A stretch of DNA of 35,456 nt from the IMG/VR virus record IMGVR_UViG_3300042691_005779; one strand, 5' to 3'. Shown piece after piece: positions 1,667 through 35,456 of this stretch; position 1 is the stretch's first letter; every line of letters begins with the position of its first letter. Made by a program: the position numbers and the translations under genes. Below the pieces are notes generated by a model. That model searched no databases and was not told where the DNA came from. It saw nothing but the letters and a program-made list of their open reading frames with translations. Source of the stretch: a virus (Duplodnaviria; Heunggongvirae; Uroviricota; Caudoviricetes).

Positions 1667-1954
1667 ATGCCAAAGTTATTAGGAAACAGAGTCCTATTAG
1701 AGATGCCTCCACAAGATGATAGTAGCAAACTTATTGTGGACGAGAACACAAAAGAAGCATTACAAAGAGAATTGCTTAACAAGATGTCTAAACTAAAGGT
1801 GCTACAAGTGGGCACTATTGTTACAGAAATCAAAGAAGGAGATATTGTATTAGTAGATCCAGCAGCTTTAAACAAAGCTACATTGGTTCCCATCAATGAT
1901 AAGGATGAACGTGCAATATTAGTATCACCATTTGATATCATTCAAGTGTGGTAA
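1667..1954 (+). CDS. groES: GroES-like co-chaperonin
   Basis: 95 aa; KLLGNRVLLE (compare the PLGDRVLV motif) and KVLQVG...IKEGDIVLV. Confidence 0.7.
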   Translation: MPKLLGNRVLLEMPPQDDSSKLIVDENTKEALQRELLNKMSKLKVLQVGTIVTEIKEGDIVLVDPAALNKATLVPINDKDERAILVSPFDIIQVW

Positions 1955-2742
1955 CTAAAGATTATATAATGCCCCTATTAGGAGGCAGGTTGGGTAACAA
2001 CTTGTTTATGATAGCTCACGCTCTTGCAAAAGGACTTGACTATAATAAGCAGGTTGTTATTTACAGACCTCATGTAATCTATCATGGCAATGACTATTCA
2101 CAAAACATATTTCGTGAGTTAAAGTTTATAGACTCTTACAAAGACAATAGAAACTATAACTTAGAAGTTCCTTCAGATGATAAACCAACATACTATTTTG
2201 GTTATTATCAAAGTGAAAGTTACTTTGAGAAGTATAGTGAAGGGATTAAACGTTTGTTTGGTCCTCCACAAGATTTTGTAGAAAGGATTATTAATGAACT
2301 ACCTCATCTACATAAGAAGATTGTTACAGTGATTAATGTACGTAGAGGTGACTATCTAAACTCTCCTAATTACCACCCAGTGGTCACACCAGAATACATA
2401 TACAAAGCTATTGAGAAAATACCTGATACAGAGATGTTTCTAATAGCTAGTGATGATATTGAATGGTGTAAAGAAAATATACAGCTGCCCAACATGTTCT
2501 TCTTAGAAGGATATAAACCAGAGGAACAGCTGTGGATTTTATCAATGTGTCAAAACTTTGTACTATCCAATAGCTCATTTAGTTGGTGGGCTGCCTATCT
2601 ATGCAAAAACCCTAACAAGATTGTTGTGGCACCTGAGACCTGGTTTGGTCCAGAGTATCCTCATCTGTGGGATTCAATGTATTGTAAGGATTGGATAATT
2701 TTACCCACCTATTTTGAAAGAGGACTAATAATACCAAAATGA
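1948..2742 (+). CDS. GT11 alpha-1,2-fucosyltransferase-like protein
   Basis: GT11 motifs GRLGNNLF, INVRRGDY, IASDDIEWCKEN and SNSSFSWWAAYL. Start is GTG 1948 or ATG 1969. Confidence 0.85.
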   Translation: MVTKDYIMPLLGGRLGNNLFMIAHALAKGLDYNKQVVIYRPHVIYHGNDYSQNIFRELKFIDSYKDNRNYNLEVPSDDKPTYYFGYYQSESYFEKYSEGIKRLFGPPQDFVERIINELPHLHKKIVTVINVRRGDYLNSPNYHPVVTPEYIYKAIEKIPDTEMFLIASDDIEWCKENIQLPNMFFLEGYKPEEQLWILSMCQNFVLSNSSFSWWAAYLCKNPNKIVVAPETWFGPEYPHLWDSMYCKDWIILPTYFERGLIIPK

Positions 2743-3413
2743 TAAGCGTACTAACAATCACATACAAAAGACACCACTTGCTTGAAGAAGCTGTGGAGTC
2801 TTTCATTAGACAAAACCCTATACCTGATGCTGAGATGGTTGTTGTAAATGATAATCCTGAAGTGGATTATGTTTACGATCATCCTGCTATACGTATATTC
2901 AACCTTAAAGAAAGGTTTCCTTCTATAGCTGCTAAGCTTAAGTGGGGAGCTAAAGCCTGTAAGAATGACTTTATTTATAGATTAGATGATGATGATCTAT
3001 TAGCCCCTAATGCAATCAGTGATGCTACAATGGGAATAATATTAAATAGTGGATATGAAATCTACAGAAGTAAAGACCACTATTTCTTTGTAGACAACAA
3101 GTTCCAGAACATGAGTTCTAACATAAACAATGGAAACATCTACACTAAGAGTTACTTAGATAGAATCACATGGCCTGATAAATCAGGAGATGAAGATGCT
3201 GATATTACATTTGCACACCATGCTAGGATATACGAAGGTTTGCCTACAACAATGATATATAGATGGGGCATGGGTACATTGCACATCTCTGGCATGGGCA
3301 TACAACCTAATGATGTAATCTTAGCTCAGGCAGATAATGTATTAGATGATACAAAAGGAACTATTGTTTTACAACCTAACTTTTTAAATGATTACTATGG
3401 ACAGATTAACTGA
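2739..3413 (+). CDS. GT2-family (GT-A) glycosyltransferase
   Basis: ISVLTITYKR...VESFIRQ...MVVVND and YRLDDDD (DxD). Confidence 0.85.
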   Translation: MISVLTITYKRHHLLEEAVESFIRQNPIPDAEMVVVNDNPEVDYVYDHPAIRIFNLKERFPSIAAKLKWGAKACKNDFIYRLDDDDLLAPNAISDATMGIILNSGYEIYRSKDHYFFVDNKFQNMSSNINNGNIYTKSYLDRITWPDKSGDEDADITFAHHARIYEGLPTTMIYRWGMGTLHISGMGIQPNDVILAQADNVLDDTKGTIVLQPNFLNDYYGQIN

Positions 3414-3948
3414 GATAGCAAATAGAATAGGTACAGATAAAGGAACCATGGATTATGGCCATCATTACACTGTGTTCTATCATGAACTATTGGACGAGCT
3501 GTCTAAGAAACATATAAAAATGTTAGAGATAGGTGTAGCAGATCCTAGATTCCCTGGAGCATCTCTTAAGATGTGGAATGAATATTTTCCTGATATTGAG
3601 CTTATAGGATATGATATTAATCCAGATGCAAAACAATTTGAAAAAGAAAATGTATCTGTATTCATTGGAGATCAAAATAACCCTGCACATCTAGAGGAAT
3701 GTGTAAAGACCTATGGAGGAGACTTTGATATAATTGTTGATGATGGGTCTCACTATGGTGAACATATAGTTACAAGCTTCAAAACATTATATCCATATCT
3801 AAAAGAAGGTGGTATATACATCATTGAAGATTTACATGCTGCACAGCTAGATGAATATAAAATGATTGAAGATATAAAAGCACTCAACTATGAGTCAAAA
3901 CAATTCTATCAAACACATCATAACAAACTGCTAATTATAGTTAAATAA
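3397..3948 (+). CDS. class I SAM-dependent methyltransferase (sugar O-methyltransferase-like)
   Basis: TDKG..HHY, MLEIGV, GYDIN, GDQ and DIIVDDGSH. Start is ATG 3397 (alternative 3388). Confidence 0.8.
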   Translation: MDRLTEIANRIGTDKGTMDYGHHYTVFYHELLDELSKKHIKMLEIGVADPRFPGASLKMWNEYFPDIELIGYDINPDAKQFEKENVSVFIGDQNNPAHLEECVKTYGGDFDIIVDDGSHYGEHIVTSFKTLYPYLKEGGIYIIEDLHAAQLDEYKMIEDIKALNYESKQFYQTHHNKLLIIVK

Positions 3949-4768: not shown

Positions 4769-4789
4769 TTTAATTATTTTTATTTTAGA

Positions 4790-7967: not shown

Positions 7968-8453
7968 TTATCCAGGATTAGTTGTAGTGGTAGTTGTAGT
8001 AACAGGTCTAGTTGTTGTAGTTGTTGTTGTAGGTGTTGCTGTAGTAGTGGTAGTAGTAGTTGTATTACTAAAACTTACTTCAGGATCAAAACTAGAACAC
8101 TCACAACCAGCTCCTGCTGTAATAACTGTTGTAGTTCCTGATGCATTTACTGCAGATATAGAACCAGTTACAGCACATATAGTAGCTACTAATAAGTTGG
8201 TACCAACTAAATTTACAGTTTGTGTGCTGTTGTCAACACCAGATCTGTAAGTGATAACACTTGATAGAGCACCTGAAGCAGTTGCTACAACTTGATAAGA
8301 GGTACCACCACTGTTGCACTCGTACCCTTGTACTTGTTGCCAGTTACCCACTTTTGGTTTGTTTCTTCTAAGGATTAAGCTCCCTGGAACTACTCTGCCA
8401 CTACCATCGTAGCGGACATAAGCTTTAAGATCACGATTGTTAATGCTTCCCAT
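7968..8453 (-). CDS. protein with poly-Thr C-terminal tail
   Basis: Ends NTTTTTTTTATPTTTTTTTRPVTTTTTTTNPG (23 Thr in 32 aa). Confidence 0.8.
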   Translation of the reverse strand: MGSINNRDLKAYVRYDGSGRVVPGSLILRRNKPKVGNWQQVQGYECNSGGTSYQVVATASGALSSVITYRSGVDNSTQTVNLVGTNLLVATICAVTGSISAVNASGTTTVITAGAGCECSSFDPEVSFSNTTTTTTTTATPTTTTTTTRPVTTTTTTTNPG

Positions 8454-8469: not shown

Positions 8470-9486
8470 TTAATAGTTAAGGTTATATTTTTGTTTTAAA
8501 TTCAATAGTTCTTTTACGTAGTAATGAGTGGCATATTTCTTAGACGTCTCATCTGTGTGCACTACATATAAATGTGTGTCTTCAAAAGGATCTTTACCAG
8601 TGTGGTAGGCCCCTTTGTAGAACGCAGGATATCCCATGTTATGTTGTCCTGTAATTCCTGCATTGTGTAGAAGTGTTGTTCTCTCCAGTTTCTCAATTGG
8701 ATCTGAAGACCAACAGAATTCTAGTTCAGGAATGTTTTTAGTTTCTTGTTCTCTAAGCCAAATGTTCCATAGCACAGCCCACATATCTGCACACCAGCTT
8801 TGAAACCCTTTGTTCTCATCTTTAAAGAACTGTTTGTTTATGTTCTGAAGATACATGCGAATGATAATACAATCATTCATCACCTTCTTCCAAAACTCTG
8901 AGTCTATATTCTTAAGGAAGTATTGTGCTCCTCCTGAATGTTCATTGTTAGCCTCAGCTATTTCTCTGTTGATTCCTATGAGGCTTGTAACCTCTGCAAG
9001 GATATCTCTAGTCTTGTATTCTTCAAGCTTCTCTGGAAGCACATCTTTTATCTTACTATCAAAGTATGAAGCATTGATATAACTGTTTGTGTCAGATAGA
9101 TAGTTTATATCATCATCTTTAAACTCATCAATGTTAAATTTATCTGTAAAGATTACGTCACAGTCACAGTAAAACACTGCTTTGGTGATCATATCAGGAT
9201 TGTCCTGGAAATATCTCATTAAGCAATAGGGACGTAGAATAGGAATATACACTCCTAAATACTCACTAACGTTTCCTGTATCCTTGTAGAAAGCAAATTT
9301 TGCTTCTGGATACAGCTCCATTATCTTCTCCCATTTACCATTGTATTCTCTAAAACTAGGAGTGTACACTAAAACAATTGCCTTGTCTGAATGTCCAAGC
9401 TTCTTCAAGCTTTCCAACCATAGATGTACTTGCCATGTGTAGTAGACATCATCTGGCTGGGCACAGATAAATTTAAGATCCTTCAT
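8470..9486 (-). CDS. GT-A glycosyltransferase resembling plant peptidyl-Ser galactosyltransferase / Hyp arabinosyltransferase (GT96/GT95-like)
   Basis: YYTWQVHLWLESLKKLG, YIPILRPYCLMRYF, VFYCDCDVIF (DxD) and SWCADMWAV follow the order of the SGT1/HPAT motifs as recalled (Y.xWQ, Y.xxN[KR]P, DxD, W.xEMY). Confidence 0.6.
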   Translation of the reverse strand: MKDLKFICAQPDDVYYTWQVHLWLESLKKLGHSDKAIVLVYTPSFREYNGKWEKIMELYPEAKFAFYKDTGNVSEYLGVYIPILRPYCLMRYFQDNPDMITKAVFYCDCDVIFTDKFNIDEFKDDDINYLSDTNSYINASYFDSKIKDVLPEKLEEYKTRDILAEVTSLIGINREIAEANNEHSGGAQYFLKNIDSEFWKKVMNDCIIIRMYLQNINKQFFKDENKGFQSWCADMWAVLWNIWLREQETKNIPELEFCWSSDPIEKLERTTLLHNAGITGQHNMGYPAFYKGAYHTGKDPFEDTHLYVVHTDETSKKYATHYYVKELLNLKQKYNLNY

Positions 9487-9516: not shown

Positions 9517-9660
9517 TTATGGAGCTGCAGTGGTAGTTGTAGTAGTTGTTGTTAAGTTAACGTTACCTGCTACTTGTGTTAATCTTTCTAATTGCTTTGA
9601 TATTTGCCAAAGCAATTTAGCTCTTTGACTCCATCCTATTTGTTGACTTGGTATTGCCAT
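9517..9660 (-). CDS. 47-aa MAIPSxQIGW-family peptide with poly-Thr tail (absent from ORF track)
   Basis: Hand translation: MAIPSQQIGWSQRAKLLWQISKQLERLTQVAGNVNLTTTTTTTTAAP; paralogous to the N-terminus of 10913..11284. Confidence 0.85.
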   Translation of the reverse strand: MAIPSQQIGWSQRAKLLWQISKQLERLTQVAGNVNLTTTTTTTTAAP

Positions 9661-10912: not shown

Positions 10913-11284
10913 TTAATCAGTACCCCAAAAAGATAAATAAGTTACTTTAGTTGCATCACTAAAACATAATTGTACAGTGTGTGCTGTATTCTCAGCAGTG
11001 TAAAGATGCTCTATGTCTACACCAATACCAGTAGTGATTGTACCATTACTTGTTGTACCATCACCCCATGTAGCAGTGTATGTTATATCTTCTGATGATT
11101 CAACAGTCATTCCAAAGCTAAGTCCACCTATTGTAGTGTTAGTTACAAAACTAATACAGTTTGGATCTGGTGGTGTTTGACCAATATTATATATAACTTT
11201 AGTTAGATACTCCAATTGCTTGGATATCTGCCACAAAAGATTTTCTTCTGTGCTCCAGCCTATCTGTCTAGATGGTATTGCCAT
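10913..11284 (-). CDS. MAIPSxQIGW N-terminal motif plus PKD-like domain
   Basis: YTATWGDGTTS...IEHLY is a PKD-like WGDG...HxY signature. Confidence 0.7.
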   Translation of the reverse strand: MAIPSRQIGWSTEENLLWQISKQLEYLTKVIYNIGQTPPDPNCISFVTNTTIGGLSFGMTVESSEDITYTATWGDGTTSNGTITTGIGVDIEHLYTAENTAHTVQLCFSDATKVTYLSFWGTD

Positions 11285-11286: not shown

Positions 11287-12384
11287 TTAGTAAGTTTTGT
11301 TCAATGTAAAAATATCACTGTAGATACTGTTTCCTGTGCTAGCAGCACCCCATTGAACAGTGATATCTAATGTATTAGAAATTGTTGTATCGAATGTTGT
11401 GTTGTTCACAACGTTAAATGAAAAACCTTCTATAACACCATTCACTGTTTTAACATAGTGAAATGTTCCTAAAGAAACAATAGATGCTACACCAGCAGTT
11501 CCTAGTTGTCTAATAGTGAAGTTTACATTTAAAGAAAACACATTGTTTGTAATGTTTGTAATAGGCTGTGCTCCACTGTCAAGTAAGATTACAGAACCTG
11601 CCTTCACTCTGATCCTTATTGTTTGGTTGTTTGTAACATTTAAAATACCAGCCATTATTGCTACAAAGCTATCTCCTACACTAAATCCATTAGCAGGCAC
11701 ACTTAACGTACCCACACCACCATTAATAAGACTAGTTTCTACAACAGTGTTAGTAACAGGAGTACTGTTTGCTGTCTGAGCAAATAGTCCATAGTTCACT
11801 GATACAGGAAGTGTTGGAGAAACTCCACTAGTTCCTGATGTGCCTGTAGTTCCAGAAGTCCCTGACGTGCCTGAAGTTCCTCTAGTGCCAGAGGTACCAG
11901 AAGAACCAGTTAGTCCTGATGTACCAGATGTACCATTAGAACCATTACCACCAGCAGCACCATTAAGGTTTACACCCCAAGAACTGTAAGTACCAGATCC
12001 TTCCACTGTAGAAGGAGCACCAAACACCAAAACCCCTGTAGCAGGGTTGTAAGATGTTATCATTGAAACCTGATGATTATTAACATCATAGGCTATCAAT
12101 ATATCTTGAGCAGTGGTGTATGCCAATCCTGTACCTACAGTGATTGTTCCACCTGTTCCTAATGTAAATGATGTAGAAGATGTGGTTTGATATCTGTCTC
12201 CAGATGCACCAGTTAATCCAGATGTACCAGATGTGCCTGAGACACCACTAGTTCCTGAAGACCCAGTGGTACCTGATGTACCAGCTACGTTTTTGATCAG
12301 GCTATCTAAATTAAGCCACCCCTTGTAACCATTACAAGGTTCGCATCTCTGATCCCAAAAACCAGCTTTAATAAATGTGGGCAT
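11287..12384 (-). CDS. Gly-Thr-Ser triplet-repeat fibre-like protein
   Basis: Two (G-T/S-S)n tracts flank a ~85-aa domain shared with the giant fibre; beta-rich C-terminal domain. Confidence 0.75.
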   Translation of the reverse strand: MPTFIKAGFWDQRCEPCNGYKGWLNLDSLIKNVAGTSGTTGSSGTSGVSGTSGTSGLTGASGDRYQTTSSTSFTLGTGGTITVGTGLAYTTAQDILIAYDVNNHQVSMITSYNPATGVLVFGAPSTVEGSGTYSSWGVNLNGAAGGNGSNGTSGTSGLTGSSGTSGTRGTSGTSGTSGTTGTSGTSGVSPTLPVSVNYGLFAQTANSTPVTNTVVETSLINGGVGTLSVPANGFSVGDSFVAIMAGILNVTNNQTIRIRVKAGSVILLDSGAQPITNITNNVFSLNVNFTIRQLGTAGVASIVSLGTFHYVKTVNGVIEGFSFNVVNNTTFDTTISNTLDITVQWGAASTGNSIYSDIFTLNKTY

Positions 12385-24587: not shown

Positions 24588-24939
24588 TTTGTGTAGCAGA
24601 TATATCATGTATATCTTGAGGTGGTACGTGTTCTACAACATCATAACCAATACCTCTACCAATATTAACAGATTCAATATCAGGTATAATCATGAGTCTA
24701 ACTCTTCCTTCCTCAATGAGATCCATTAATTCTTCTGTTAGATTCATCATAACTTGCCATGGAGACCAAGGATTCTTCTCATCAGGAGTAACATCTCTTA
24801 CACAGAGGAGAACATTCTTACCTTCATTTAATTTCTGATCAATCAACCATCTGTGACCAGGATGCCATGGTTGCCATCTTCCTATGAACATAGCATAACC
24901 ACTTCCATTACCATTACCTTTTGCTAGAATATTCTGCAT
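24553..24939 (-). CDS. HxGH nucleotidyltransferase (cytidyltransferase-like), candidate minimal ATP sulfurylase
   Basis: MFIGRWQPWHPGH and ISATQIR; directly downstream of the APS kinase gene. Confidence 0.7.
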   Translation of the reverse strand: MQNILAKGNGNGSGYAMFIGRWQPWHPGHRWLIDQKLNEGKNVLLCVRDVTPDEKNPWSPWQVMMNLTEELMDLIEEGRVRLMIIPDIESVNIGRGIGYDVVEHVPPQDIHDISATQIREQLKAEGKL

Positions 24940-25361
24940 ACATGTTTGATTTTATCTACACTATCTTCAATAGAAGTGTTAGATGTATTAATAATTAAAT
25001 CTACATCATCTTTCTGTGGTAGCTCAAAGTCTGCCACTTTAAATTGATCTCTACCTCTATCTTCTTCATATGTGAGATAGATCCATTTAACATCTCTGGT
25101 TAGACTGCTTAGATACTCTCTAGCTTCTTCATAAGGATACACTAGTGATAACACTATGTTATAGTTTCTTGCTTTATTCAAATAGTAAGCAATATCACTA
25201 GCTCTGTTTAAGTTTTTAATCCTACCTTCTTTACTGTAGTCTTTGTTCTTAAACATATCTCTTAGTTCATCACCATCTATGTGGTGGAATCCCTCTGCTA
25301 TAAACTTTTTAGCAAGAGTTGTCTTGCCTGATGCAGGCTGTCCAAATAATACTATTATCAT
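24924..25361 (-). CDS. cysC: adenylylsulfate (APS) kinase-like P-loop kinase
   Basis: GQPASGKTT, IDGDELR, DYSKEGRIKNL, SLVYPYEEARE, FELP. Confidence 0.8.
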   Translation of the reverse strand: MIIVLFGQPASGKTTLAKKFIAEGFHHIDGDELRDMFKNKDYSKEGRIKNLNRASDIAYYLNKARNYNIVLSLVYPYEEAREYLSSLTRDVKWIYLTYEEDRGRDQFKVADFELPQKDDVDLIINTSNTSIEDSVDKIKHVCRIF

Positions 25362-26176
25362 TTTGTATATCTAAATTGTTGAAAGAACCATTGGTAATTA
25401 TCCCATATCCAGTTTGTAACGTCCTTACCTAATAAGGCTTTTGCTCTAGAAGGAACAGGTTCTAATCTAGTACGAATAGTGTGGTCACCAAAGCTACCAT
25501 ACACCTCATCATCTTCTTTAGTAACTTGTTCTATATTATCCCAATCATGTTGGTAATAAGGAATGCCTAGGTATTGATATATCCTTTGCATCTCTGTATC
25601 TGGATATAGACACAAGTCTTCAAACTTAACAAACAATACATGTTTGTCTATCCCTAGCCTAAACATCTCTTGTAATCTTTCTATAGCTAGACCAACAGGT
25701 TGACTCTGTGCCCAGATGTCTATACGTTTAGGAACTGTTGTTCCTTGCATCTGTGCCCAATTAAGAATAGCATTAGCCTTATCAGGATTCTTTCTGTAGT
25801 TGTTCTCCATAGAAGCAAAGACATCACGTAGGTCTCTCACCATACATATAATCTTTGGCTCTGGGTGGATAAAGTTTAGGAAGTCATAATGTATTCCCCA
25901 TCCTCTAGATTTGTCTACAACATATTTCTTATCTGTAATAGCATTGTAATAAGCAATCATTCCTTCTTTACAGAATGCTTGGAATGCAGCTTTCATTACT
26001 TGTGGATCTTGAGCTTGGAACTCAGGACTGTCTGTATAGTTTCCTCTAGCAGCAAACACTAACTCAAGTACACCACTAGTTGGTGTAGCATAGATGTCTG
26101 GATTTTGTGCTAATATGTTTTGTAACAATGTTGAACCTGCTCTTGGTAAAGAGCTTTGATAGAATATATTCTCCAT
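25358..26176 (-). CDS. PAPS-dependent sulfotransferase
   Basis: 5-prime PSB loop SLPRAGSTLL; 3-prime PB motif MVRDLRDVFASM; KFEDL. Confidence 0.85.
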   Translation of the reverse strand: MENIFYQSSLPRAGSTLLQNILAQNPDIYATPTSGVLELVFAARGNYTDSPEFQAQDPQVMKAAFQAFCKEGMIAYYNAITDKKYVVDKSRGWGIHYDFLNFIHPEPKIICMVRDLRDVFASMENNYRKNPDKANAILNWAQMQGTTVPKRIDIWAQSQPVGLAIERLQEMFRLGIDKHVLFVKFEDLCLYPDTEMQRIYQYLGIPYYQHDWDNIEQVTKEDDEVYGSFGDHTIRTRLEPVPSRAKALLGKDVTNWIWDNYQWFFQQFRYTK

Positions 26177-26177: not shown

Positions 26178-27053
26178 TTAAGATTTTAAAGATGCTATGA
26201 TTTGATCTACATTAAATATTTCTTTCTCATTGTTATATGGAAACTCTAATAGGTTCCCTGATATATCAAACTTCTGCAAGTATGCATTGCGTAACTCAGG
26301 CTTCTTAGTGAATGGATTACATACAATGTTATCATGTACATCATATCCAAACACCTCAGGCTTATTACACACCCATAGCACTGTAGAAGGTTTATTCATA
26401 GCAGCAGCTGCATGATGACCAAAGCTATCCATCAACAATCTCTTACTACTAAGTTCTATAAGAACAGCTAGTGCTCTGAAGTTATCTGTAACAGGAGTGG
26501 TGAAGTCATAACCAATCTGATCTTCTCTTCTTATGTGTACAATGTTATAATCATTTTTAAATTCATGTATAACATTCTCCACTACATAACTAGGAATGTC
26601 TCTAGCCCATGAGTATTTCAACTCTTGTCCTGGAGCACCACCATTTGTTTGTAACAATAAAATAGGTCTGTCAGATGTAAACTTCTGACCAAAGAACTTA
26701 CGTTCTCTATCTGTAAGATAGAGCTTAGGAATAACACTCTCAGGTGTAGGAACACCAAACATTCTTGTCCATGTATGACTTAAGTGTTCATTCTGCATAA
26801 GATGTTCTGTCTGTAGATATGGATCATGTGCAAACACTTTGAACTCTTTACCCTCTATAAAATCTTCATAGAAGTATTGTGTCATGCCAAAAGAAAATGA
26901 GCGATACACAAAGGGGTTGTTTATAAACACCTCTGGGTAACCGCTCATTACAATTAATTGACTATCAGGATATTGTTTGTGAATTGCTTCACAAACAGAT
27001 GTAGCAAGTATACACTTACCTATACCACCATTGATTTGGAAAATGATATTCAT
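26178..27053 (-). CDS. GT9-like (heptosyltransferase fold) glycosyltransferase
   Basis: GGIGKCILAT...YPDSQLIV...NNPFV and DSFGHHAAAAMNKPSTVLW. Confidence 0.7.
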   Translation of the reverse strand: MNIIFQINGGIGKCILATSVCEAIHKQYPDSQLIVMSGYPEVFINNPFVYRSFSFGMTQYFYEDFIEGKEFKVFAHDPYLQTEHLMQNEHLSHTWTRMFGVPTPESVIPKLYLTDRERKFFGQKFTSDRPILLLQTNGGAPGQELKYSWARDIPSYVVENVIHEFKNDYNIVHIRREDQIGYDFTTPVTDNFRALAVLIELSSKRLLMDSFGHHAAAAMNKPSTVLWVCNKPEVFGYDVHDNIVCNPFTKKPELRNAYLQKFDISGNLLEFPYNNEKEIFNVDQIIASLKS

Positions 27054-27111: not shown

Positions 27112-27459
27112 TTATTCTTCAACAGCTGTAGTTGTGGTTGTTGTGGTTGTAGGACCAGCCAAAACAGCCTCAGCAAGATCTACAAAAGCTGTAGTATCTA
27201 AGTCTGCATACTGTACTCTAAAACTTTCTGCACCTTGTTGACTTGGTAGCCAATCAGAGAAAAGATCATAGAATGTGTTGATAGCATGATACTGCTTAGG
27301 GCCTGTATAACCTTCTGGTTTGTTTGCCCATACATCATCTACGCAAGCGTCTACTAGAGCTTGGAAGTCAGAAACATTTGCCTGTACGTTTTGGGTATCA
27401 GTGATTACCTGCACTGTACCAAAGCCAAAGATGTGAAGTGTGTTAAATGGATTTGCCAT
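27112..27459 (-). CDS. acidic protein with poly-Thr tail (tail-fibre assembly-like position)
   Basis: Ends AGPTTTTTTTAVEE; lies immediately downstream of the giant fibre gene. Confidence 0.75.
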   Translation of the reverse strand: MANPFNTLHIFGFGTVQVITDTQNVQANVSDFQALVDACVDDVWANKPEGYTGPKQYHAINTFYDLFSDWLPSQQGAESFRVQYADLDTTAFVDLAEAVLAGPTTTTTTTTAVEE

Positions 27460-27479: not shown

Positions 27480-27845
27480 TTAAATTAAATTATTGTTTTT
27501 CAAAATATTTTCTATTATTTTTATTCTATCCTTCAGACTATCATTCTCAGCTTTAAGTTCTTTGAATGCGTTTACATAAGAAGCATAGATGGCATCTTTT
27601 TCAAATTGTAGTATTGGGCTACCACCTTCTCCAACTATCACCTCAAGACCATTTTCATCCACTCTTGAAACACTGTTGACTTCTACAACACAAGCCATTG
27701 CTTGTTGTACCTCTTGAGCTATGAAGCCATACTTTCTATGACATGACACATCCCCATTCCAACAATAGCTTACAGGTCTTAGTTTGATAATATCATCTAA
27801 ACCAAAGCATGTATCTTGAATAGTATTCTTTCTTCTGCAATCAGA
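27480..27845 (-). other. peptidase S74 intramolecular chaperone domain
   Basis: SDCRRKNTI...LDDIIKLRPVSYCW...YGFIAQEV...C-terminal coiled coil; predicted cleavage at the Ser encoded by 27843-27845. Confidence 0.85.
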
Positions 27846-30800
27846 GATACCACCACCCCACTGACATAAGTTGTTTACAAATGTGAAGTTGTTAGCTACA
27901 CCAAATAAACAAGAACCAATCATGTGTGCGTTGGTAGCACTATTTGTAGTATTACATAATCCTGCAAGAACAGATGACCAACATGAATTAGCTACGTTAT
28001 TTAATCCTCCACCAACAAATGTATAATTTGAAGTACAAGCTCTATTCCCTTCACCTCCTACTATAGCTGAATATGTAGTTGATGCAATATTATTATATCC
28101 ACCACCTACGAATGAGCTATTACCTGACGCGGTATTAGTTTGACCTCCTACTATAGATGATAAATAACCTGATGCTGAATTAGTAAGACCTCCTCCAAGT
28201 GTAGTCCAAGTGTTTGATGCTGCATTTCCTGACCCTCCTCCTACGAACGAACGAGTTCCTGAAGCTACGTTACTTGAACCTCCTGCTACAGTTGAATATG
28301 CTCCTGAAGCTGTATTAGATTGCCCAGCTCCTACAAACCCTCTATTACCACTGGCTGTATTGCTATAACCTCCTGATACAGTTGATATAGAAAAACTAGC
28401 TGAGTTTAAAAACCCTCCACCAACGGTTGCCCATGAGCCTGTAGCACCATTACTTCTTCCTCCTGCTATTGTTGATTCACAACCTGTTGCATTATTGTTA
28501 TATCCACCACTTGCTGTAGATCTAATTCCACAAGCTCTTACAGAAGCACCTCCTCCAACAAAAGATCCACTTCCTAATGCTAGATTTGACGCACCACCAA
28601 CTACAGCGGCATAACCACCACTTGCTGTATTATTGTTTCCACTACCTACAAATGAGCCATAGCCACTTGCTGAGGCAGCTCTACCTCCTGCTATAGTTGA
28701 ACAAGCCCCTCCTGCTGTATTACTAAACCCACCACCAACTGTTGCATGGGAATTAGTTGCCGAGTTATTACACCCACCACCAACTCTTGAAGCAACCCCT
28801 GATGCTGTATTTGATTGACCTGCACCAATAGATGCTTTATTACCACTTGCAGTGTTTAATGCTCCACCTGCTATTGTTGAATCATATGTACCACTAACTG
28901 TATTCGTGTAACCACCACCAATAGTACCTGTTATTGAAGAAGCAGTGTTACTTAAACCACCTGATATTGTTGAGTTACCTGCTAATGCTCTGTTATAACA
29001 TCCACCCCCTACTGTTGTCCAAGATGAAGCAGCACAGTTGAATTGACCTCCCCCTAAAAACGCATAATTGCCACAGTTAATATTCATCCATCCACCAACA
29101 AGAACACCTGCTGTTCCCATTGTGTAAATAACAGATGGAGCAGTTGAGAAGTATGAACTACCCATAACACCACCTGAAGTATTGTTTCCAATACCACCAC
29201 CTGCAAAACCACCCGTAGCATTTGCTCTATTACATATACCTCCTGCAACTGTTGATTGAGTACCACTTGCACAGTTTCTATAACCTCCTGAAACTGTTCC
29301 ATTGTATCCTGAAGATGCATTGACATATCCACCTCCTACTGCTGAATAGTTTCCACTAGCAGTGTTAGAATAACCTCCTGCAATTGTTGGATATTGGCTT
29401 GATGCTACGTTTCCAAATCCACCACCTACTGTTGATTGTGTTCCACAAGATTGATTTGAACAACCTCCGCCTACAAAAGCTCCTGTAACAGATGCTGTAT
29501 TACTAATACCTCCTCCAACTGCTGTAAAATATCCACTTGCTGTGTTTGATTGACCACCTGCTACAACAGAACGTACGGCTGTTGCATTATTGCCAACACC
29601 ACCACCTACAGTTGTTCCATTGGATGATGATGTATTTCCATTACCACCACCAATCGTAGCCCAACATCCTGAAGCATTATTTCCTCTACCGCCTCCAACA
29701 GTTGAACTTTCGCCTGAAGCTGTTACATCATATCCACCACCAATAAAAGACCATGAGCCTGAAGCTAAGTTTGAATATCCTCCACTAACAGTTGATGTAT
29801 CACCACAAGCTACGTTTACAACACCACCTGCAACAACACTATGAGATGCTGATGCTAAGTTTTGTCTACCACCAACCATAGCCATATAACCACTAGCTGA
29901 GTTATTACATCCACCTAATACAGCTGAAAACTGACCTGAAGCAGTGTTTTGCATACCTGCTCCTACAAATGAAGTGTTTCCTGATGCTGCATTGAATCTT
30001 CCTCCTGATACAGTAGAGAAATATCCGCTCGTTGTATTACATAAACCACCACCAATTGATGTGTTATTACTTGATGCAACGCTACATTGTCCACCACTTA
30101 CCACTGAATATGTCCCTGATGCTCTATTCTGAAATCCTCCTCCTATTGTTGAATAGATACCTGCATTTACTCTTGTAGGAGCCACTGTAAATTCACAAGC
30201 AGCAAGACTCCAAGTTCCCCCTGATGTATTATTACCTACACCACCTACTACCACAGCACCAAATGCTAAACAATCAGAAGTTGAATTACATATTGAATTA
30301 CAACTACCACCACCAATAAAACCATGATTTGCAAATACAAAGTTTCCTTGACCGCCAACAGCTGATGAGTGTAAACTACATACATGATTTACGCTTCCTG
30401 CGCCTATGAAAGAACGATTGCCACAAGCTACTACGTTAAATGTTCCATTGACAATAGTTGCCATATATGAAGAAGCTGTGCCTTGCCTTCCGCCACCTAT
30501 AAAAGATCTATCTCCTGAAGCTATATTTCCTGCTGCTCCACTACCTATTACTGTTGCAAACCCACCTGATGCAGTATTTCCATTACCACCTAAAACAATA
30601 GATGAATAACCACTGGCTGTGTTAAGACATCCTGCACCAACTAGTGAATAAGAGCCTATTGAGGAGTTAAATCTTCCTCCTACTACAGAGGCAACGTATC
30701 CACTTGCAGTGTTACAATAACCACCTGAAACTGTAGTTCTCCAATTAGTAGCACGATTACACAATCCACCACCAACTGTAGAATGTCCACAACCTGATGC

Positions 30801-33800
30801 TGTATTAACCTCACCTCCACCTATAGTTCCAAATGGAGCTGATGCTGAATTTGTACTACCACCACCTATAGAAGAAGCACCTCCTGATGCTGTGTTAGAA
30901 AGACCACCTCCAACAAATGTATAAGAATTTGTAGTAGAGTTTGCTCTACCTCCTGCAATTGTAGACATATAGCCTGATGCAGTGTTATCATATCCACCTG
31001 CAACTGTCGCAGAGTAACTACCTGAAGCTACGTTATTAAAACCACCTCCTACAGTTGCGTGATATGTTCCACAAGCTCTGTTGCAAACACCACCTGCTAC
31101 CACATTATTTTCTCCTGAAGCTATATTAGCACGACCACCTAAAACAGCAGAACAAGCTCCTGACGCTGTATTAGAACAGCCTCCTGCAACTACTGAATGA
31201 GAACCTGAAGAAGCGTTTCCATTACCACTAAATACACCTGAGATGCCTCCTGACGCTGTATTGAATCCTCCTCCTCCAACAATTGAACGATAAGCTGAAG
31301 TTGTATTCCCAATGCCTCCTGCTACAGTTGAAATATAACCTGAAGCTGTATTTGCTCTACCCCCTGATATAGCAGAATAATCACCTGATGCTATGTTTGG
31401 AGAAGGAGGACGACCACCACCTCCAATAAAAGCATAAAGACCTGAAGCTACGTTCTGATAGCCACCTGCTACTACACTCATATAAGCAGAAGCAGTGTTA
31501 CCTGAACCTCCTCCTATGAACGAATAGTTGCCTGTTGATTTATTTACTTCACCACCTGCCACTACTGCTGCTTCTCCAAAAGCACAGTTAATTCTGCCCC
31601 CTGCTACTGTAGATGAATTTGTACAAGCTATATTATTACATCCACCACCTATTGATGAATTAACTCCTGACGCTGCATTATTTATACCACCTGAAATTGT
31701 TGAATAGCCACCTGTGGCTGCATTTAATTGACCACCTCCTACAGTAGAGCAGTTTCCTGATGATGTGTTAGTAGACCCTCCACCTATAGATGACAATGCA
31801 CCTGACGCTGTGTTTACATGTCCACCACCCACTACAGACCCATTTGATGTAGATGTATTTCTACAACCACCACCAATGAAAGACCTAGTTCCTGAAGCAG
31901 TGTTTTGATAACCACCTGAAACTGTTGAATAAGTTCCTGAGGAAGTATTATCATATCCACCACTCACTGTAGAATATCCTCCTGTAGCATCATTCATTAC
32001 ACCACCTAAAGCTGATGAATATGCAAATGTTGCTGTATTACATCTACCTCCTGCCACAGTTGTCCAACAACCTGTTGCTCTATTAACTGTACCACCACCT
32101 ATTGTTGAAGTGTTTCCTGACGCTATGTTTTGATAACCTCCACTAATTGTACTAAACTGACCTGTTGCAATATGCCTAAAGCCACCACCAATAAATGAGA
32201 AATATCCTGCATCACAAACTGTTGGTGCTACAGAGAAACAACCTCCTGTCCAAGTACCACCTGTTGTGTTATGACCTGTTCCACCTACTATAGTAGACCA
32301 AGCACCACAAGAAGCTGACGTTGCATTACATATAAAGTTTGATGTACCACCTGCTATAGTAATACCTGTTCCTGCTATGGCTATACAATTAAATGCACCA
32401 CCACCAATTAAAGAACAAACTCCTGAATTTGTATTTGCATAACCACCACCTATAAATGAATAACAACCATTTGCATAGTTTGATTCACCACCTACAACTG
32501 ATGCTTGACCTCCATTAGTGCAGTTACCATATCCTCCACCCACAACACTATATATTCCTGCTGCACCATTCACTCTACCGCCACCTACTGTTGAGCAGTT
32601 TCCTGAAGATGTGTTATTACAACCACCTCCTATAGAAGTATTATTTCCTGAAGCAACATTCCCATTACCACTACCAATAAAACTTTCTCCACCTGATGTT
32701 ATATTTAATACACCACCCCCAATGTGAGAGCGAGATGCAGATGCTGTATTGTTTTGACCACCCCCAATACCTGCCATATATCCTGAAGTGGTATTAAGAT
32801 AACCACCTGCTGCTACAGAACCATAGCTTCCACTTGCAGTGTTACCATAACCTCCACCTATAAATGGATATTGTGCGCCTGATGCATTATTTGCAGCACC
32901 ACCTGCTACTGTGGCTCTTAAACCACTTGCAACGTTGCACCACCCACCACCTATTGCGGAGCAACCACCATAAGAACAGTTCGCTTGTCCTCCTCCTACT
33001 GTAGAAAAGGCAATATTTGCAATATTCCCTCTACCACCACCTATGAAAGTATAAGTGCCTGAAGCTGTATTTTGATAACCTCCTACAACTGATGAATAAG
33101 TACTTGAAGCTGTGTTGTCATAACCTGCTCCTACAAAGGAATAATTTGCACTTGATAAATTTGATTCACCACTTACAACAGCTGACCTTGTGCCTGATGC
33201 ATTATTACTTAAACCACCTCCTGTAAAGCTGTATGTACCTGAAGCTGTGTTTGACTGACCACCTCCTACAACTGACCTATTTGCTGAAGCTGAATTATTA
33301 CTACCACCACCTATAAAAGAAGCTGTATTTTGGGTAGTATTAGAAAGACCACCTGCAATGGCAGAATATGAACCCACTGAAGCATTAGCTGAACCACTTA
33401 AAGAACCACTATATGCTCCTGAAGAAGTATTTGTTACACCACATCTTACTGAAGAACACAATCCTGCTCCAAGCACAATAACAGCACTAGAACCAACATT
33501 TATACCAGAACTACCTGAGCTACCACTTGTACCTGACGTACCACTGGTGCCAGAAGTTCCACTTGTTCCTGAGCTACCACTGGTTCCTGTAGTTCCTGAA
33601 GAACCACTAGAGCCTGTTGTACCAGAGGTTCCTGTTGTACCAGACGTACCACTTGTAGCTGATGTACCACTAGAGCCTGAAGTACCTGTGGTACCTGACG
33701 TACCACCTGTACCATTGGTTCCACTTGTACCACTTGTTGCTGAAGAGCCAGAACTACCTGATGTACCTGATGTTCCATTTATACCAGAAGTTCCTGAGGT

Positions 33801-35456
33801 ACCAGCAGTTCCTGAGGTACCACTAATACCACTTGTTCCACTGGTGCCACTAGTTCCTGAAGAACCAGAGCTTCCTGTGGTTCCAGATGTACCACTTGTA
33901 CCTCCTGTACCATTAGTACCAGACGTACCACTAGAACCTGCTGTGCCACTTGTGCCAGAGGTTCCTGTAGTACCAGAGGTTCCTGAACTTCCTGATGTTC
34001 CACTAGAACCACTTGTTCCTGTTGTTCCACTTGATCCTGAAGAGCCAGTTGTACCACTAGTACCACTTGTTCCTCCTGTTCCATCTGTGCCACTGGTTCC
34101 ACTAGTTCCTGTTGTACCACTAGTGCCAGATGTACCATTTACTCCTGAAGAGCCTGATGTGCCACTTGTACCAGAAGAACCAGAAGAACCTGAAGAACCT
34201 TCACCTCCTGTAGCACCATCCAAGTTAACTTGCCATGAGCTATATGTACCAGACCCTGTAAGTCTAAATACAGTGAAGCTTAATGAGCCAGTTGCTGGGT
34301 TATAAGAAGTCACCTCAGCCTCTACGTGATTGTTTGCATCATAAGCAACAATAATAGACTGACCAACTGTATATGCTAATCCTGTTCCCACTGTAATGGT
34401 TCCTGAAGAACCTACAGCTCCTAATGTATATGTTGATGTTGATGTGGTGGCAAATCTGTCACCACTCAACCCTGAAGTTCCTGATGTCCCACTAGTACCA
34501 GAGGTTCCAGAAGTTCCTCTTGTTCCACTAGTTCCACTAGTTCCACTAGTGCCCCCAGTACCATCTGTAGCTGATGTACCAGAACTTCCACTTGTACCTG
34601 AAGTTCCTGACGTTCCAGAGGTACCACTTGTTCCTGTGGTACCTGATGTACCAGCACTACCACTTGTACCACTAGATCCACTAGTACCAGTTGTACCTGA
34701 TGATCCTGAAGACCCTGTAGTACCAGAAGTACCTGATGTGCCTCCTGTTCCATCAGTCCCACTAGTCCCACTCGTACCACTAGTTCCAGCTGTGCCTGAA
34801 GTCCCACTTGTTCCACCTGTACCATCAGTACCTGAAGTTCCAGTTGTACCTGATGTACCTGCTGTTCCTGAGCTTCCACTAGAGCCACTTGACCCACTTG
34901 TACCAGTTGTACCAGAGGTTCCCCCTGTACCATCAGTACCAGAGGTGCCTGATGTTCCAGTAGTACCTGCTGTACCACTTGATCCTGATGTTCCAGAACT
35001 GCCACTAGTACCTGTAGTACCTGATGTGCCACTGGTACCTGCTGTACCTGAAGTACCTGTTGTACCAGCAGTTCCTGAGCTGCCTGATGTGCCAGAGCTG
35101 CCTGAAGTTCCTGTGGTTCCACTTGTACCAGATGTGCCATCTGTACCTGAAGTTCCACTAGTTCCAGTTGTTCCACTGGAACCTGAGCTTCCAGAAGTAC
35201 CTGTTGTACCACTGGTTCCAGCTGTACCACTGGTTCCTGATGTGCCATCAGTACCAGACGTGCCTGAAGTTCCACCTGTACCATCTGTTCCACTCGTACC
35301 TGAAGTACCAGAGGTTCCAGAAGTGCCAGAGGTTCCTGACGTACCATCAATACCTGAAGTACCAGAGGTACCACCTGTAGCTGTGAAGTTTGCAATAGTA
35401 CCATCACCTCGTATGTATTGAGCTGCTGATCCTGTTGCTACAACGTTTATAGTTCC
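27480..35456 (-). CDS. giant tail fibre/adhesin of at least 2658 aa, 5-prime end outside the window
   Basis: The frame of ORF 27480..34469 stays open to base 35456 (GTINVVATGSAAQYIRGDGTIANFTATGGTSGTSG...); the TTG at 34469 is an internal Leu codon. Contains GTS repeats, 15-aa beta-roll repeats and a C-terminal S74 domain. Confidence 0.88.
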   Translation of the reverse strand, partial: GTINVVATGSAAQYIRGDGTIANFTATGGTSGTSGIDGTSGTSGTSGTSGTSGTSGTDGTGGTSGTSGTDGTSGTSGTAGTSGTTGTSGSSGSSGTTGTSGTSGTDGTSGTSGTTGTSGSSGTSGSSGTAGTTGTSGTAGTSGTSGTTGTSGSSGTSGSSGTAGTTGTSGTSGTDGTGGTSGTTGTSGSSGSSGSSGTAGTSGTTGTSGTDGTGGTSGTSGTAGTSGTSGTSGTDGTGGTSGTSGTTGSSGSSGTTGTSGSSGTSGSAGTSGTTGTSGTSGTSGTSGTSGSSGTSATDGTGGTSGTSGTSGTRGTSGTSGTSGTSGTSGLSGDRFATTSTSTYTLGAVGSSGTITVGTGLAYTVGQSIIVAYDANNHVEAEVTSYNPATGSLSFTVFRLTGSGTYSSWQVNLDGATGGEGSSGSSGSSGTSGTSGSSGVNGTSGTSGTTGTSGTSGTDGTGGTSGTSGTTGSSGSSGTTGTSGSSGTSGSSGTSGTTGTSGTSGTAGSSGTSGTNGTGGTSGTSGTTGSSGSSGTSGTSGTSGISGTSGTAGTSGTSGINGTSGTSGSSGSSATSGTSGTNGTGGTSGTTGTSGSSGTSATSGTSGTTGTSGTTGSSGSSGTTGTSGSSGTSGTSGTSGTSGTSGSSGSSGINVGSSAVIVLGAGLCSSVRCGVTNTSSGAYSGSLSGSANASVGSYSAIAGGLSNTTQNTASFIGGGSNNSASANRSVVGGGQSNTASGTYSFTGGGLSNNASGTRSAVVSGESNLSSANYSFVGAGYDNTASSTYSSVVGGYQNTASGTYTFIGGGRGNIANIAFSTVGGGQANCSYGGCSAIGGGWCNVASGLRATVAGGAANNASGAQYPFIGGGYGNTASGSYGSVAAGGYLNTTSGYMAGIGGGQNNTASASRSHIGGGVLNITSGGESFIGSGNGNVASGNNTSIGGGCNNTSSGNCSTVGGGRVNGAAGIYSVVGGGYGNCTNGGQASVVGGESNYANGCYSFIGGGYANTNSGVCSLIGGGAFNCIAIAGTGITIAGGTSNFICNATSASCGAWSTIVGGTGHNTTGGTWTGGCFSVAPTVCDAGYFSFIGGGFRHIATGQFSTISGGYQNIASGNTSTIGGGTVNRATGCWTTVAGGRCNTATFAYSSALGGVMNDATGGYSTVSGGYDNTSSGTYSTVSGGYQNTASGTRSFIGGGCRNTSTSNGSVVGGGHVNTASGALSSIGGGSTNTSSGNCSTVGGGQLNAATGGYSTISGGINNAASGVNSSIGGGCNNIACTNSSTVAGGRINCAFGEAAVVAGGEVNKSTGNYSFIGGGSGNTASAYMSVVAGGYQNVASGLYAFIGGGGRPPSPNIASGDYSAISGGRANTASGYISTVAGGIGNTTSAYRSIVGGGGFNTASGGISGVFSGNGNASSGSHSVVAGGCSNTASGACSAVLGGRANIASGENNVVAGGVCNRACGTYHATVGGGFNNVASGSYSATVAGGYDNTASGYMSTIAGGRANSTTNSYTFVGGGLSNTASGGASSIGGGSTNSASAPFGTIGGGEVNTASGCGHSTVGGGLCNRATNWRTTVSGGYCNTASGYVASVVGGRFNSSIGSYSLVGAGCLNTASGYSSIVLGGNGNTASGGFATVIGSGAAGNIASGDRSFIGGGRQGTASSYMATIVNGTFNVVACGNRSFIGAGSVNHVCSLHSSAVGGQGNFVFANHGFIGGGSCNSICNSTSDCLAFGAVVVGGVGNNTSGGTWSLAACEFTVAPTRVNAGIYSTIGGGFQNRASGTYSVVSGGQCSVASSNNTSIGGGLCNTTSGYFSTVSGGRFNAASGNTSFVGAGMQNTASGQFSAVLGGCNNSASGYMAMVGGRQNLASASHSVVAGGVVNVACGDTSTVSGGYSNLASGSWSFIGGGYDVTASGESSTVGGGRGNNASGCWATIGGGNGNTSSSNGTTVGGGVGNNATAVRSVVAGGQSNTASGYFTAVGGGISNTASVTGAFVGGGCSNQSCGTQSTVGGGFGNVASSQYPTIAGGYSNTASGNYSAVGGGYVNASSGYNGTVSGGYRNCASGTQSTVAGGICNRANATGGFAGGGIGNNTSGGVMGSSYFSTAPSVIYTMGTAGVLVGGWMNINCGNYAFLGGGQFNCAASSWTTVGGGCYNRALAGNSTISGGLSNTASSITGTIGGGYTNTVSGTYDSTIAGGALNTASGNKASIGAGQSNTASGVASRVGGGCNNSATNSHATVGGGFSNTAGGACSTIAGGRAASASGYGSFVGSGNNNTASGGYAAVVGGASNLALGSGSFVGGGASVRACGIRSTASGGYNNNATGCESTIAGGRSNGATGSWATVGGGFLNSASFSISTVSGGYSNTASGNRGFVGAGQSNTASGAYSTVAGGSSNVASGTRSFVGGGSGNAASNTWTTLGGGLTNSASGYLSSIVGGQTNTASGNSSFVGGGYNNIASTTYSAIVGGEGNRACTSNYTFVGGGLNNVANSCWSSVLAGLCNTTNSATNAHMIGSCLFGVANNFTFVNNLCQWGGGISDCRRKNTIQDTCFGLDDIIKLRPVSYCWNGDVSCHRKYGFIAQEVQQAMACVVEVNSVSRVDENGLEVIVGEGGSPILQFEKDAIYASYVNAFKELKAENDSLKDRIKIIENILKNNNLI
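27945..33420 (-). repeat. 15-aa S-x-[VI]-x-G-G-x-x-N-x-A-S-G-x-x repeat array (YadA/Hep-Hag-like beta-roll)
   Basis: Read directly from the translation; roughly 115-120 units, estimated by dividing length by 15. Confidence 0.85.
33520..34205 (-). repeat. (Gly-Thr/Ser-Ser)n triplet repeat
   Basis: Gly at nearly every third residue, no Pro. Confidence 0.9.
34470..35385 (-). repeat. (Gly-Thr/Ser-Ser/Thr)n triplet repeat, about 300 aa
   Basis: In-frame upstream extension of the fibre gene; source of the V/P/E shadow ORF on the plus strand. Confidence 0.9.

Follow-up and report, generated by a model that had tools for sequence, protein, structure and literature searches.

Phage particles are usually viewed as bare protein, and the one established case that we found cited of virion glycans made by a phage is that of the mycobacteriophages. 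According to the sources (Freeman 2023, cited in PMC12619734 and PMC13445384), the C-termini of mycobacteriophage capsid and tail-tube proteins bear glycans that are attached by phage enzymes, and these virion glycans affect antibody recognition. In Escherichia coli, the autotransporter heptosyltransferases of the BAHT type, TibC and Aah, transfer heptose from ADP-heptose to Ser residues of the beta-helix of TibA and AIDA-I; each is a stand-alone enzyme of approximately 400 amino acids (aa) that is encoded beside its autotransporter substrate and forms a dodecameric ring. In plants and algae, enzymes of the glycosyltransferase (GT) families GT95 and GT96 put the first sugar directly onto hydroxy-amino acids of repetitive peptides. 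Here, these systems are compared with a group of modification genes in a 35,456-nucleotide stretch of DNA from a tailed virus (Caudoviricetes; IMG/VR record IMGVR_UViG_3300042691_005779), which is referred to below as the window and is numbered from its first letter.

The genes of the window include those for a dUTPase and a GH19 endolysin, for several proteins that resemble fibres and for a number of modification enzymes, together with a block that specifies exported proteins. The arrangement suggests that the phage modifies its own structural proteins by means of three enzyme-acceptor cassettes, and we regard this reading as probable because each cassette adjoins its own class of repetitive Ser/Thr-rich fibre or tag protein. 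Sugars would probably, and sulfate possibly, be added to proteins of the phage's own particle, and the modification would take place in the host cytoplasm, late in infection. An earlier note on this DNA had proposed one self-contained system that builds a sulfated, methylated, mucin-like coat. The enzymes do lie beside repeat proteins, and the co-occurrence of the two, which had been chosen beforehand as the test of the idea, is found both as shared presence and as direct adjacency; however, they form three cassettes instead of one pathway, and the acceptors are fibres and small tagged proteins with a predicted position on the particle, for which the word coat is not retained. The protease resistance and the engagement of SusC/D systems that the earlier note had raised are speculative.

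The comparison set comprises approximately 95 related viral loci: the best 80 of 147 confirmed IMG/VR relatives of the TibC-like domain described below, each analysed with 10-kb flanks, and 14 further loci that were recovered by searching with the C-terminus of the giant fibre. Additionally, 40 window proteins were scanned against Pfam. With 20 kb of the window as query, megablast returned no match among GenBank phages, which indicates that no close relative is present there.

A predicted four-domain transferase of the TibC type and neighbouring collagen-like fibres

21195..24587, plus strand: 1130-aa four-domain enzyme, consisting of a methyltransferase-like region (residues ~1-165), a DxD-containing GT-A-like region (~170-435), a GT4 domain (~600-730) and an Aah/TibC-type domain (796-1124)
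20768..21136, minus strand: DUF6165 protein (PF19662, 41.1 bits; weakly DUF4254-like)
11287..12384, minus strand: 365-aa short collagen-like (Gly-Thr-Ser) fibre (PF01391 Collagen, 40.6 bits)
27480..35456, minus strand: giant tail fibre of more than 2658 aa, with its 5' end outside the window (PF01391, 195.8 bits; PF13884, 30.7 bits, cut-off 22)

Residues 796-1124 of the 1130-aa protein match the NCBIfam equivalog TIGR04414 (autotransporter O-heptosyltransferases) with 244.7 bits, above the cut-off of 200, and the structure of TibC (PDB 4RAP) with an E-value of 5e-48. In TibC, Asp110 is the catalytic base, Thr226 and Lys230 are ligands of the beta-phosphate, Trp305 contacts the heptose, and Cys339, Cys342, Cys358 and Cys370 form an iron finger (Yao et al. 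2014, PMC4358343). Asp110, Thr226, Lys230, Trp305 and the four iron-finger cysteines align as identical in the window protein, and the stereoselectivity position is occupied by Ser, as in Aah. These nine catalytic, phosphate-binding, sugar-contact, Ser and Cys positions are invariant in 63 of 63 distinct phage homologues, and the alignment reveals a Cys-x2-Cys pair followed by two single cysteines as the predicted iron finger. The Aah/TibC-like priming transferase of the earlier note is therefore confirmed by the family cut-off, the TibC match and the key residues. The residue corresponding to Arg286 of TibC is Thr in the window, and the phage homologues carry Thr (60), Ala (2) or Val (1) and never Arg (n = 63). 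Arg286 contacts N1 of the adenine, and its mutation abolished or largely diminished the activity of TibC (PMC4358343). Because this adenine-contact residue is replaced across the phage clade, the donor may not be ADP-heptose.

The remaining domains of the 1130-aa protein are less clearly defined. The GT4 domain is recognised by PF00534 (40 bits), and the N-terminal methyltransferase region gives a weak match to PDB 3CC8 (E 0.0098). The internal GT-A domain that had been claimed for residues ~170-435 retains the DxD motif, but its assignment otherwise relies on a language-model lead to GT8/Nucleotid_trans.

No gene adjoins the multidomain transferase more constantly than that of the DUF6165 protein (40 of 80 loci). 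Of the 67 loci in which at least 3 kb of sequence follow the transferase gene downstream, 55 have a large collagen-like or Ser/Thr-rich fibre gene within 6 kb of it, in convergent orientation. In the window, the giant fibre consists, in order, of collagen-like Gly-Thr-Ser segments, a beta-roll of approximately 1800-1850 aa and a C-terminal Peptidase_S74 chaperone domain. This open-ended open reading frame (ORF) contains at least 501 aa of Gly-X-Y repeat, most of it Gly-Thr-Ser, in agreement with the more than 500 aa of such repeats counted in the earlier note. The TibC-like domain may prime Ser and Thr residues on the collagen-like Gly-Thr-Ser parts of the fibre or fibres, after which the fused GT4 and GT-A domains would lengthen the sugar and the methyltransferase domain may cap it.

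A GT-A enzyme paired with poly-threonine proteins

8470..9486, minus strand: 338-aa GT-A glycosyltransferase of the unannotated family phrog_4417 (AlphaFold2 model and Foldseek)
7968..8453, minus strand: 161-aa protein with N-terminal module B (LKAYVRYDGSGR...ECC) followed by three C-terminal poly-Thr blocks, a candidate acceptor (from sequence)
9517..9660, minus strand: 47-aa ORF, previously unannotated, consisting of module A (MAIPS.QIGWS..LLWQISKQLE), a T8 run and AAP, a candidate acceptor and minimal fibril
10913..11284, minus strand: 123-aa protein with a module-A N-terminus and a globular C-terminal part, without poly-Thr
27112..27459, minus strand: 115-aa protein with a terminal T8 run, directly downstream of the giant fibre gene

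The 338-aa protein matches no Pfam family at E-values up to 0.01 and has no sequence match in NCBIfam or the PDB. The structure predicted by AlphaFold (AF2) from 29 homologues has a predicted local distance difference test score (pLDDT) of 94.3 and adopts a GT-A fold, in which the acidic metal-binding motif D108-x-D110 is invariant across the aligned homologues. A Foldseek comparison of this model with Swiss-Prot reveals the Arabidopsis peptidyl-serine alpha-galactosyltransferase SGT1 (GT96) as the top match (E 2e-9), followed by the hydroxyproline O-arabinosyltransferases HPAT1-3 (GT95) with template modelling (TM) scores of 0.59-0.62, and the best matches in the PDB are glycogenin, GT6 enzymes and UGGT. 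The GT95/96-like priming transferase of the earlier note thus holds at the level of the fold but not at that of the sequence family, as the protein is not a member of the Pfam HPAT family. With the TibC-type domain, the window encodes two enzymes of protein-directed types, as had been claimed.

At least 3124 clusters are related to the 338-aa protein, all of them unannotated, and a language-model lead consists of PF23452 in 10% of one neighbouring cluster. A profile-profile comparison of the 338-aa family with the internal GT-A-like domain of the 1130-aa protein aligns the two only around the DxD motif. An identity as the major capsid protein, which was guessed from size and position, is ruled out by the GT-A fold and the DxD motif.

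The poly-Thr tails that had been noted previously are present at 7968-8453, 9517-9660 and 27112-27459. The Thr runs are written with mixed codons and are therefore not slippage tracts of the DNA. Among the related loci, a module-A ORF of 44-57 aa is conserved directly upstream of the 338-aa gene in approximately 28 loci, and a module-B protein of 61-166 aa with Thr runs is encoded downstream of it; of the 31 distinct module-B proteins, 28 have a Ser/Thr run directly after the module. The density of small ORFs that contain a run of at least six Thr is 1.16 per kb up to 700 bp from the 338-aa gene and 0.024 per kb in the rest of the same loci, a difference of approximately 47-fold, and the 338-aa gene is paired with a small poly-Thr ORF in 30 of 34 loci. 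Homologues of the 115-aa protein carry Thr runs in L002-L004, L017 and L019 (numbers denote loci of the comparison set) and are found downstream of the fibre in L083-L088.

Module A, which comprises approximately 30 aa, heads proteins with very different C-termini (bare poly-Thr, globular domains and collagen-like fibres, the fibres being those of L020, L011, L017 and L018), and it may represent a shared docking adaptor for attachment to the virion. The poly-Thr ORFs adjoining the 338-aa gene, in addition to the pairing across lineages that is described below, lead us to propose that the 338-aa enzyme is a poly-Thr O-glycosyltransferase, which would add the first sugar to the poly-Thr of the 47-aa and 161-aa proteins and perhaps also to that of the 115-aa protein.

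A further group of small, partly Lys-rich genes at 4121-7953, which includes DUF6321 and DUF5856 members, accompanies the 338-aa gene block in 16-24 related loci.

Homologues of the 338-aa enzyme in unrelated phages

A tblastn search identifies 77 GenBank phage records with a homologue of the 338-aa enzyme, and the named examples sit within head or tail modules beside structural proteins with poly-Thr tails. In Enterococcus phage phiFL2B, long Thr runs form the ends of two structural proteins, gp43 of the head and gp48 of the tail, and the homologue gp49 follows directly. Lacticaseibacillus phage R9.1 has T8-T9 ends on capsid-like and tail-like proteins, Staphylococcus phage vB_SpsS-DH5 encodes two poly-Thr proteins directly upstream of the homologue, and in Chryseobacterium phage MA9V-3, Ser/Thr runs of 21-41 residues are present in two of the three proteins directly upstream.

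Tail proteins of the gp48 family were also read in six phages in which the enzyme gene does not adjoin (Streptococcus Javan47, Javan505 and Javan377, SPP1, and Lactobacillus Bassarid and phiJL-1). The tail protein of these six phages lacks poly-Thr and ends where the body of the phiFL2B protein ends. This comparison is a small but real test of gain and loss, and it supports the pairing of the enzyme with poly-Thr.

Two annotations of phiFL2B differ from these assignments. The product gp49 (L082:4001-4909) is annotated as "major tail protein", yet it is a homologue of the 338-aa glycosyltransferase, and gp48 (L082:3345-4001), which is hypothetical in the record, is the actual tail-tube protein and belongs to the SPP1 gp17.1 family.

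A sulfotransferase set that accompanies the beta-roll fibre

24553..24939, minus strand: 128-aa nucleotidyltransferase with HxGH and ISxTxxR motifs, NMNAT/TagD-like (sub-threshold matches only)
24924..25361, minus strand: 145-aa adenosine 5'-phosphosulfate (APS) kinase-like P-loop kinase, a candidate supply of 3'-phosphoadenosine 5'-phosphosulfate (PAPS) (PF01583, 35.6 bits, cut-off 21.1)
25358..26176, minus strand: 272-aa PAPS-type sulfotransferase (PF13469, 73.7 bits; PF00685, 51.9 bits)
26178..27053, minus strand: 291-aa GT-B protein with a GT9 (heptosyltransferase) fold (AF2 model, pLDDT 74.8)

The beta-roll of the giant fibre is rich in Ser, Thr and Asn and exhibits a sharp 15-residue period (autocorrelation 0.35 against a background of approximately 0.08); it is the Ser/Thr-dense beta-roll of the earlier note, and a match to LbR_Ice_bind (27 bits) is below the cut-off. 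The genes for the GT9-like protein, the sulfotransferase, the kinase and the nucleotidyltransferase travel as a set that is present in 22 of the 22 loci with a beta-roll fibre, and among the related loci the beta-roll fibre is never found without it.

The sulfotransferase possesses both PAPS-binding motifs, the 5'-phosphosulfate-binding (5'-PSB) and 3'-phosphate-binding (3'-PB) motifs PRAGST and RDxxD..S, which are conserved in 18 homologues; with the PF13469 score, these establish the sulfotransferase that had been read previously. The P-loop and the DGDxxR motif of the kinase are conserved, and its nearest PDB entries are APS kinases (E 1e-5). The claimed candidate PAPS supply is partly supported, by the Pfam cut-off and the motifs, whereas the NCBIfam cut-offs are missed (33.9 bits against 138.7 for APS kinase, in a protein of only 145 aa). 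The nucleotidyltransferase gene overlaps the kinase gene by 16 nt, and phrog_10255 represents a fused kinase-plus-transferase form. The nucleotidyltransferase resembles NMNAT or TagD and is not recognisable as an ATP sulfurylase; it is a possible partner of the kinase in donor synthesis.

Foldseek places the 291-aa model closest to 3TOV, WaaF and WaaC (E 4e-10 to 1e-8) and then to TibC, so the GT9-like domain of the earlier note is seen in the fold of the predicted model. The protein has no Pfam match, carries GGIGK at the position of the GT9 G-D motif and lacks the catalytic Asp, and a profile-profile comparison of its family with the TibC-like domain gives no significant match. The beta-roll of the giant fibre may be the substrate of the GT9-fold protein and the sulfotransferase, with PAPS coming from the APS-kinase-like enzyme, possibly aided by the small nucleotidyltransferase.

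The sulfotransferase might instead act directly on Tyr, Ser or Thr side chains of the beta-roll fibre and not on a glycan, in which case the GT9-fold protein would have a separate role. The protein-tyrosine sulfotransferases TPST1/2 are its nearest solved sequence relatives (E 2.5e-5), Tyr recurs in the beta-roll repeats, and the sulfotransferase set tracks the beta-roll fibre. However, the similarity to the TPSTs is limited to the PAPS-binding half (residues 6-123), whereas a weak resemblance to NoeE spans residues 8-237. Additionally, the sulfotransferase gene adjoins the GT9-fold gene in at least 19 loci, which fits the sulfation of a sugar that is added by the GT9-fold enzyme. Direct sulfation of the protein is on balance unlikely, and a glycan on the beta-roll is a candidate acceptor of the sulfate.

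Variable glycosyltransferases and the source of the donors

1948..2742, plus strand: GT11-family glycosyltransferase (alpha-1,2-fucosyltransferase family), a candidate elongating enzyme (PF01531, 105.7 bits)
2739..3413, plus strand: GT2-family glycosyltransferase with a GT-A fold (PF00535, 48.8 bits)
3388..3948, plus strand: probable class I S-adenosylmethionine methyltransferase, a weak call (sub-threshold matches to Methyltransf_24, Methyltransf_31, FtsJ and Methyltransf_12, E 5e-5 to 5e-3)

The Pfam scores of the GT11 and GT2 proteins and of the GT4 domain of the 1130-aa enzyme agree with the three families that had been named previously. The GT2 protein exhibits a weak similarity to PglI, WcaA and similar enzymes. 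Homologues of the GT11 protein are found in one of the 80 related loci and those of the neighbouring GT2 protein in six, and the GT11 gene belongs to the less conserved part of the enzyme set. The GT11, GT2 and separate methyltransferase genes may encode variable add-ons that alter the glycan. Candidate domains are seen for both methyltransferases of the earlier note, but both calls (the sub-threshold matches here and the 3CC8 match of the 1130-aa protein) are weak, and methylation of the product is only weakly indicated.

These families bear on the main alternative, in which the transferases remodel glycans of the host envelope (lipopolysaccharide (LPS), capsule, exopolysaccharide or host glycoproteins), which might exclude superinfecting phages or keep progeny off cell debris, for instance, and the Ser/Thr repeats are mere flexible linkers. 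GT11, GT2 and GT4 are classic polysaccharide families, NoeE, to which the sulfotransferase bears its weak likeness, acts on an oligosaccharide, and some window genes specify exported products, one being the 405-aa protein at 12493-13710, which has a signal peptide. However, a lipid-carrier priming transferase, a flippase and a polymerase were not found among the 40 window proteins scanned with Pfam, the TibC-type and GT95/96-like enzymes indicate protein acceptors, and the close adjacency to repeat proteins within head and tail modules recurs across lineages. Remodelling of host glycans is accordingly considered rather unlikely, and modification of the phage's own structural proteins is the reading that is followed here.

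Five near-complete relatives, one of which has a 96%-identical transferase domain, were searched for genes of donor synthesis, and no NTP_transferase, ATP sulfurylase or CysD-type match was obtained in them; an epimerase-family gene of the short-chain dehydrogenase/reductase (SDR) type is present in one of the five. Because the families of donor synthesis are unmatched in these relatives, the sugar donors must come from the host, and APS is probably also host-supplied. The self-contained system of the earlier note is therefore not supported, since the donor-synthesis families searched, other than this single epimerase-family gene, were not found in the five relatives.

The same relatives bear on the possibility that the enzymes glycosylate bases of the phage DNA as an anti-restriction hypermodification. 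Clusters of phage glycosyltransferases that modify DNA are known, according to two sources (bioRxiv 10.1101/2023.12.21.572611; PMC13326640). However, the five relatives contain no thymidylate-synthase-like hydroxymethylase, and a Tet/JBP match is likewise missing from them, although the same search was blank in every control genome too. Additionally, the genes are located among fibre and lysis genes, and the TibC-type and GT95/96-like folds are protein-directed. Modification of the DNA is very improbable.

Points that weigh against self-modification

The enzyme types, the acceptor repeats and the conserved linkage between them are shown here, whereas every chemical step, the identity of the sugars, the pairing of enzymes with acceptors and the place of the products on the virion are inferred. 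Several points weigh against the proposal that the phage modifies its own structural proteins. The related loci share ancestry and do not represent independent events, which means that the support is smaller than the counts suggest. Phages commonly possess collagen-like fibres, and the 55 of 67 loci in which one lies near the transferase gene were drawn only from loci that bear the transferase. The loss of Arg286 throughout the phage TibC-like clade leaves neither the donor nor the activity assured, and GT11, GT2 and GT4 are typical enzymes of polysaccharide synthesis. The module-A and module-B proteins would be placed on the virion only by the N-terminal modules that they share. Additionally, the assignment of enzymes to acceptors is uncertain because the beta-roll and the sulfotransferase set occur in seven loci in which the TibC-like gene was not found (in L085, the case that was checked, the sequence covers approximately 7 kb beyond the set).

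Other genes of the window

124-573: dUTPase (PF00692, 69 bits)
18561-19178: GH19-type endolysin (phrog_181, E 6e-69)

The G+C content of the window is approximately 36-43%, no tRNA genes were detected, and most of the small genes have no match in a PHROGs search. A co-oriented block at 12493-18387 contains the gene of the 405-aa protein mentioned above, which besides its signal peptide has a lengthy poly-Ser/Glu tract and a C-terminal part. The same block encodes a protein of 564 aa that carries a cohesin domain at its C-terminus (PF00963, 36 bits). The proteins of this block are probably directed to the envelope rather than parts of the virion; the poly-Ser tract of the 405-aa protein could be another acceptor. 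A 409-aa protein at 9672-10901, between fibre genes, combines leucine-rich repeats (including a match to the EndoS-type repeats) with a lectin domain of the Laminin_G_3/ConA-like kind and is a candidate for receptor binding.

The near-identical locus L002 (IMGVR_UViG_3300044614_000224, 114588 bp) is recorded as 100% complete with direct terminal repeats, yet it ends inside the repetitive fibre gene; the collagen-like repeats may have been mistaken for a "terminal repeat".

Significance and comparison with known systems

If the proposed self-modification is correct, virion glycosylation is widespread, extending to lake crAss-like phages and to phages of Enterococcus, Lactobacillus/Lacticaseibacillus, Lactococcus and Staphylococcus, and enzyme families newly linked to phages, namely the BAHT-like domain and the GT95/96-like family, are involved in it, possibly together with sulfation. 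A wider proposal, in which phages of several lineages use such systems of tags and writers, three of them in the present phage, each with a priming enzyme of its own for one repeat class (poly-Thr tags, Gly-Thr-Ser collagen triple helices or the 15-residue beta-roll), and with the beta-roll sulfated from phage-made PAPS, is advanced tentatively and is more doubtful than the self-modification itself. If this three-writer reading holds, the phage would provide the first case of a sulfated particle among prokaryotic viruses, and a first function would be assigned to a family of at least 3124 unannotated clusters. These considerations are relevant to adsorption, to the stability of the particles, to how therapeutic phages are recognised by the immune system and to the annotation of numerous phage genes labelled "hypothetical". 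The culturable phages that carry the 338-aa family (Enterococcus phiFL1A/2B, Lacticaseibacillus R9.1 and PLE3, Lactococcus bIL285 and Chryseobacterium MA9V-3) make the reading directly testable. In the literature searched, no sulfated phage virion is described, and no paper was found that ties crAss-like phages, TibC-like enzymes or sulfotransferases to virion modification.

A collagen-like acceptor is known from BclA of the Bacillus anthracis exosporium, a Gly-X-Thr triple helix whose Thr residues bear O-linked oligosaccharides and which forms a hair-like nap. BclA is a bacterial spore protein, and its glycan is made by enzymes unrelated to those of the phage; BclA is not known to be sulfated.

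With the PAPS synthase and sulfotransferase pathways (CysC/PAPSS, NoeE and TPST), the phage set shares an APS-kinase-like P-loop kinase bearing DGDxxR, a translational coupling of this kinase to a nucleotidyltransferase, and a sulfotransferase with both PAPS motifs. It differs in its short kinase, which scores below the NCBIfam cut-offs, and in the NMNAT/TagD-like character of the nucleotidyltransferase.

A comparison of the 338-aa enzyme with SGT1 (GT96) and with HPAT1-3, RDN and PLENTY (GT95) reveals a fold match over nearly the whole model (TM approximately 0.6). However, the sequence identity is only approximately 10-13%, and the viral enzyme is cytoplasmic and has no membrane anchor; its likely acceptor is poly-Thr, whereas that of the GT95 and GT96 enzymes is Ser or hydroxyproline (Hyp).

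The resemblance to the BAHT systems of E. coli lies in the C-terminal domain, which matches the curated family model and keeps the key residues, and in the genomic position, as both the BAHT gene and the phage gene lie beside a gene for a long, repetitive, Ser-rich beta-solenoid or fibre protein that is the likely substrate. In contrast to the stand-alone BAHT enzymes, the phage-encoded domain forms the C-terminus of an 1130-aa fusion with three more domains, and its neighbour is a collagen-like/beta-roll tail fibre instead of an autotransporter.

As far as the mycobacteriophage sources indicate, the Che8-type phages and the window phage both combine phage-encoded transferases with Ser/Thr-rich C-terminal extensions on structural proteins, and the Firmicutes relatives of the 338-aa enzyme are accompanied by tags on capsid and tail-tube proteins, as in Che8. 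However, the enzymes belong to another family, with no Mycobacterium phage among the 77 tblastn matches, and the host phyla differ. Additionally, the window phage has its tags on small adaptor-headed proteins and fibres, and it possesses the extra TibC-like and sulfation cassettes.

The working principle that is proposed here is closest to those of TibC-TibA, Aah-AIDA-I and mycobacteriophage virion glycosylation. It differs from them in the fusion of the transferase to further domains, in having fibres as acceptors, in the consistent absence of the Arg that contacts adenine, in a separate tag writer that is GT95/96-like, and in the sulfation set.

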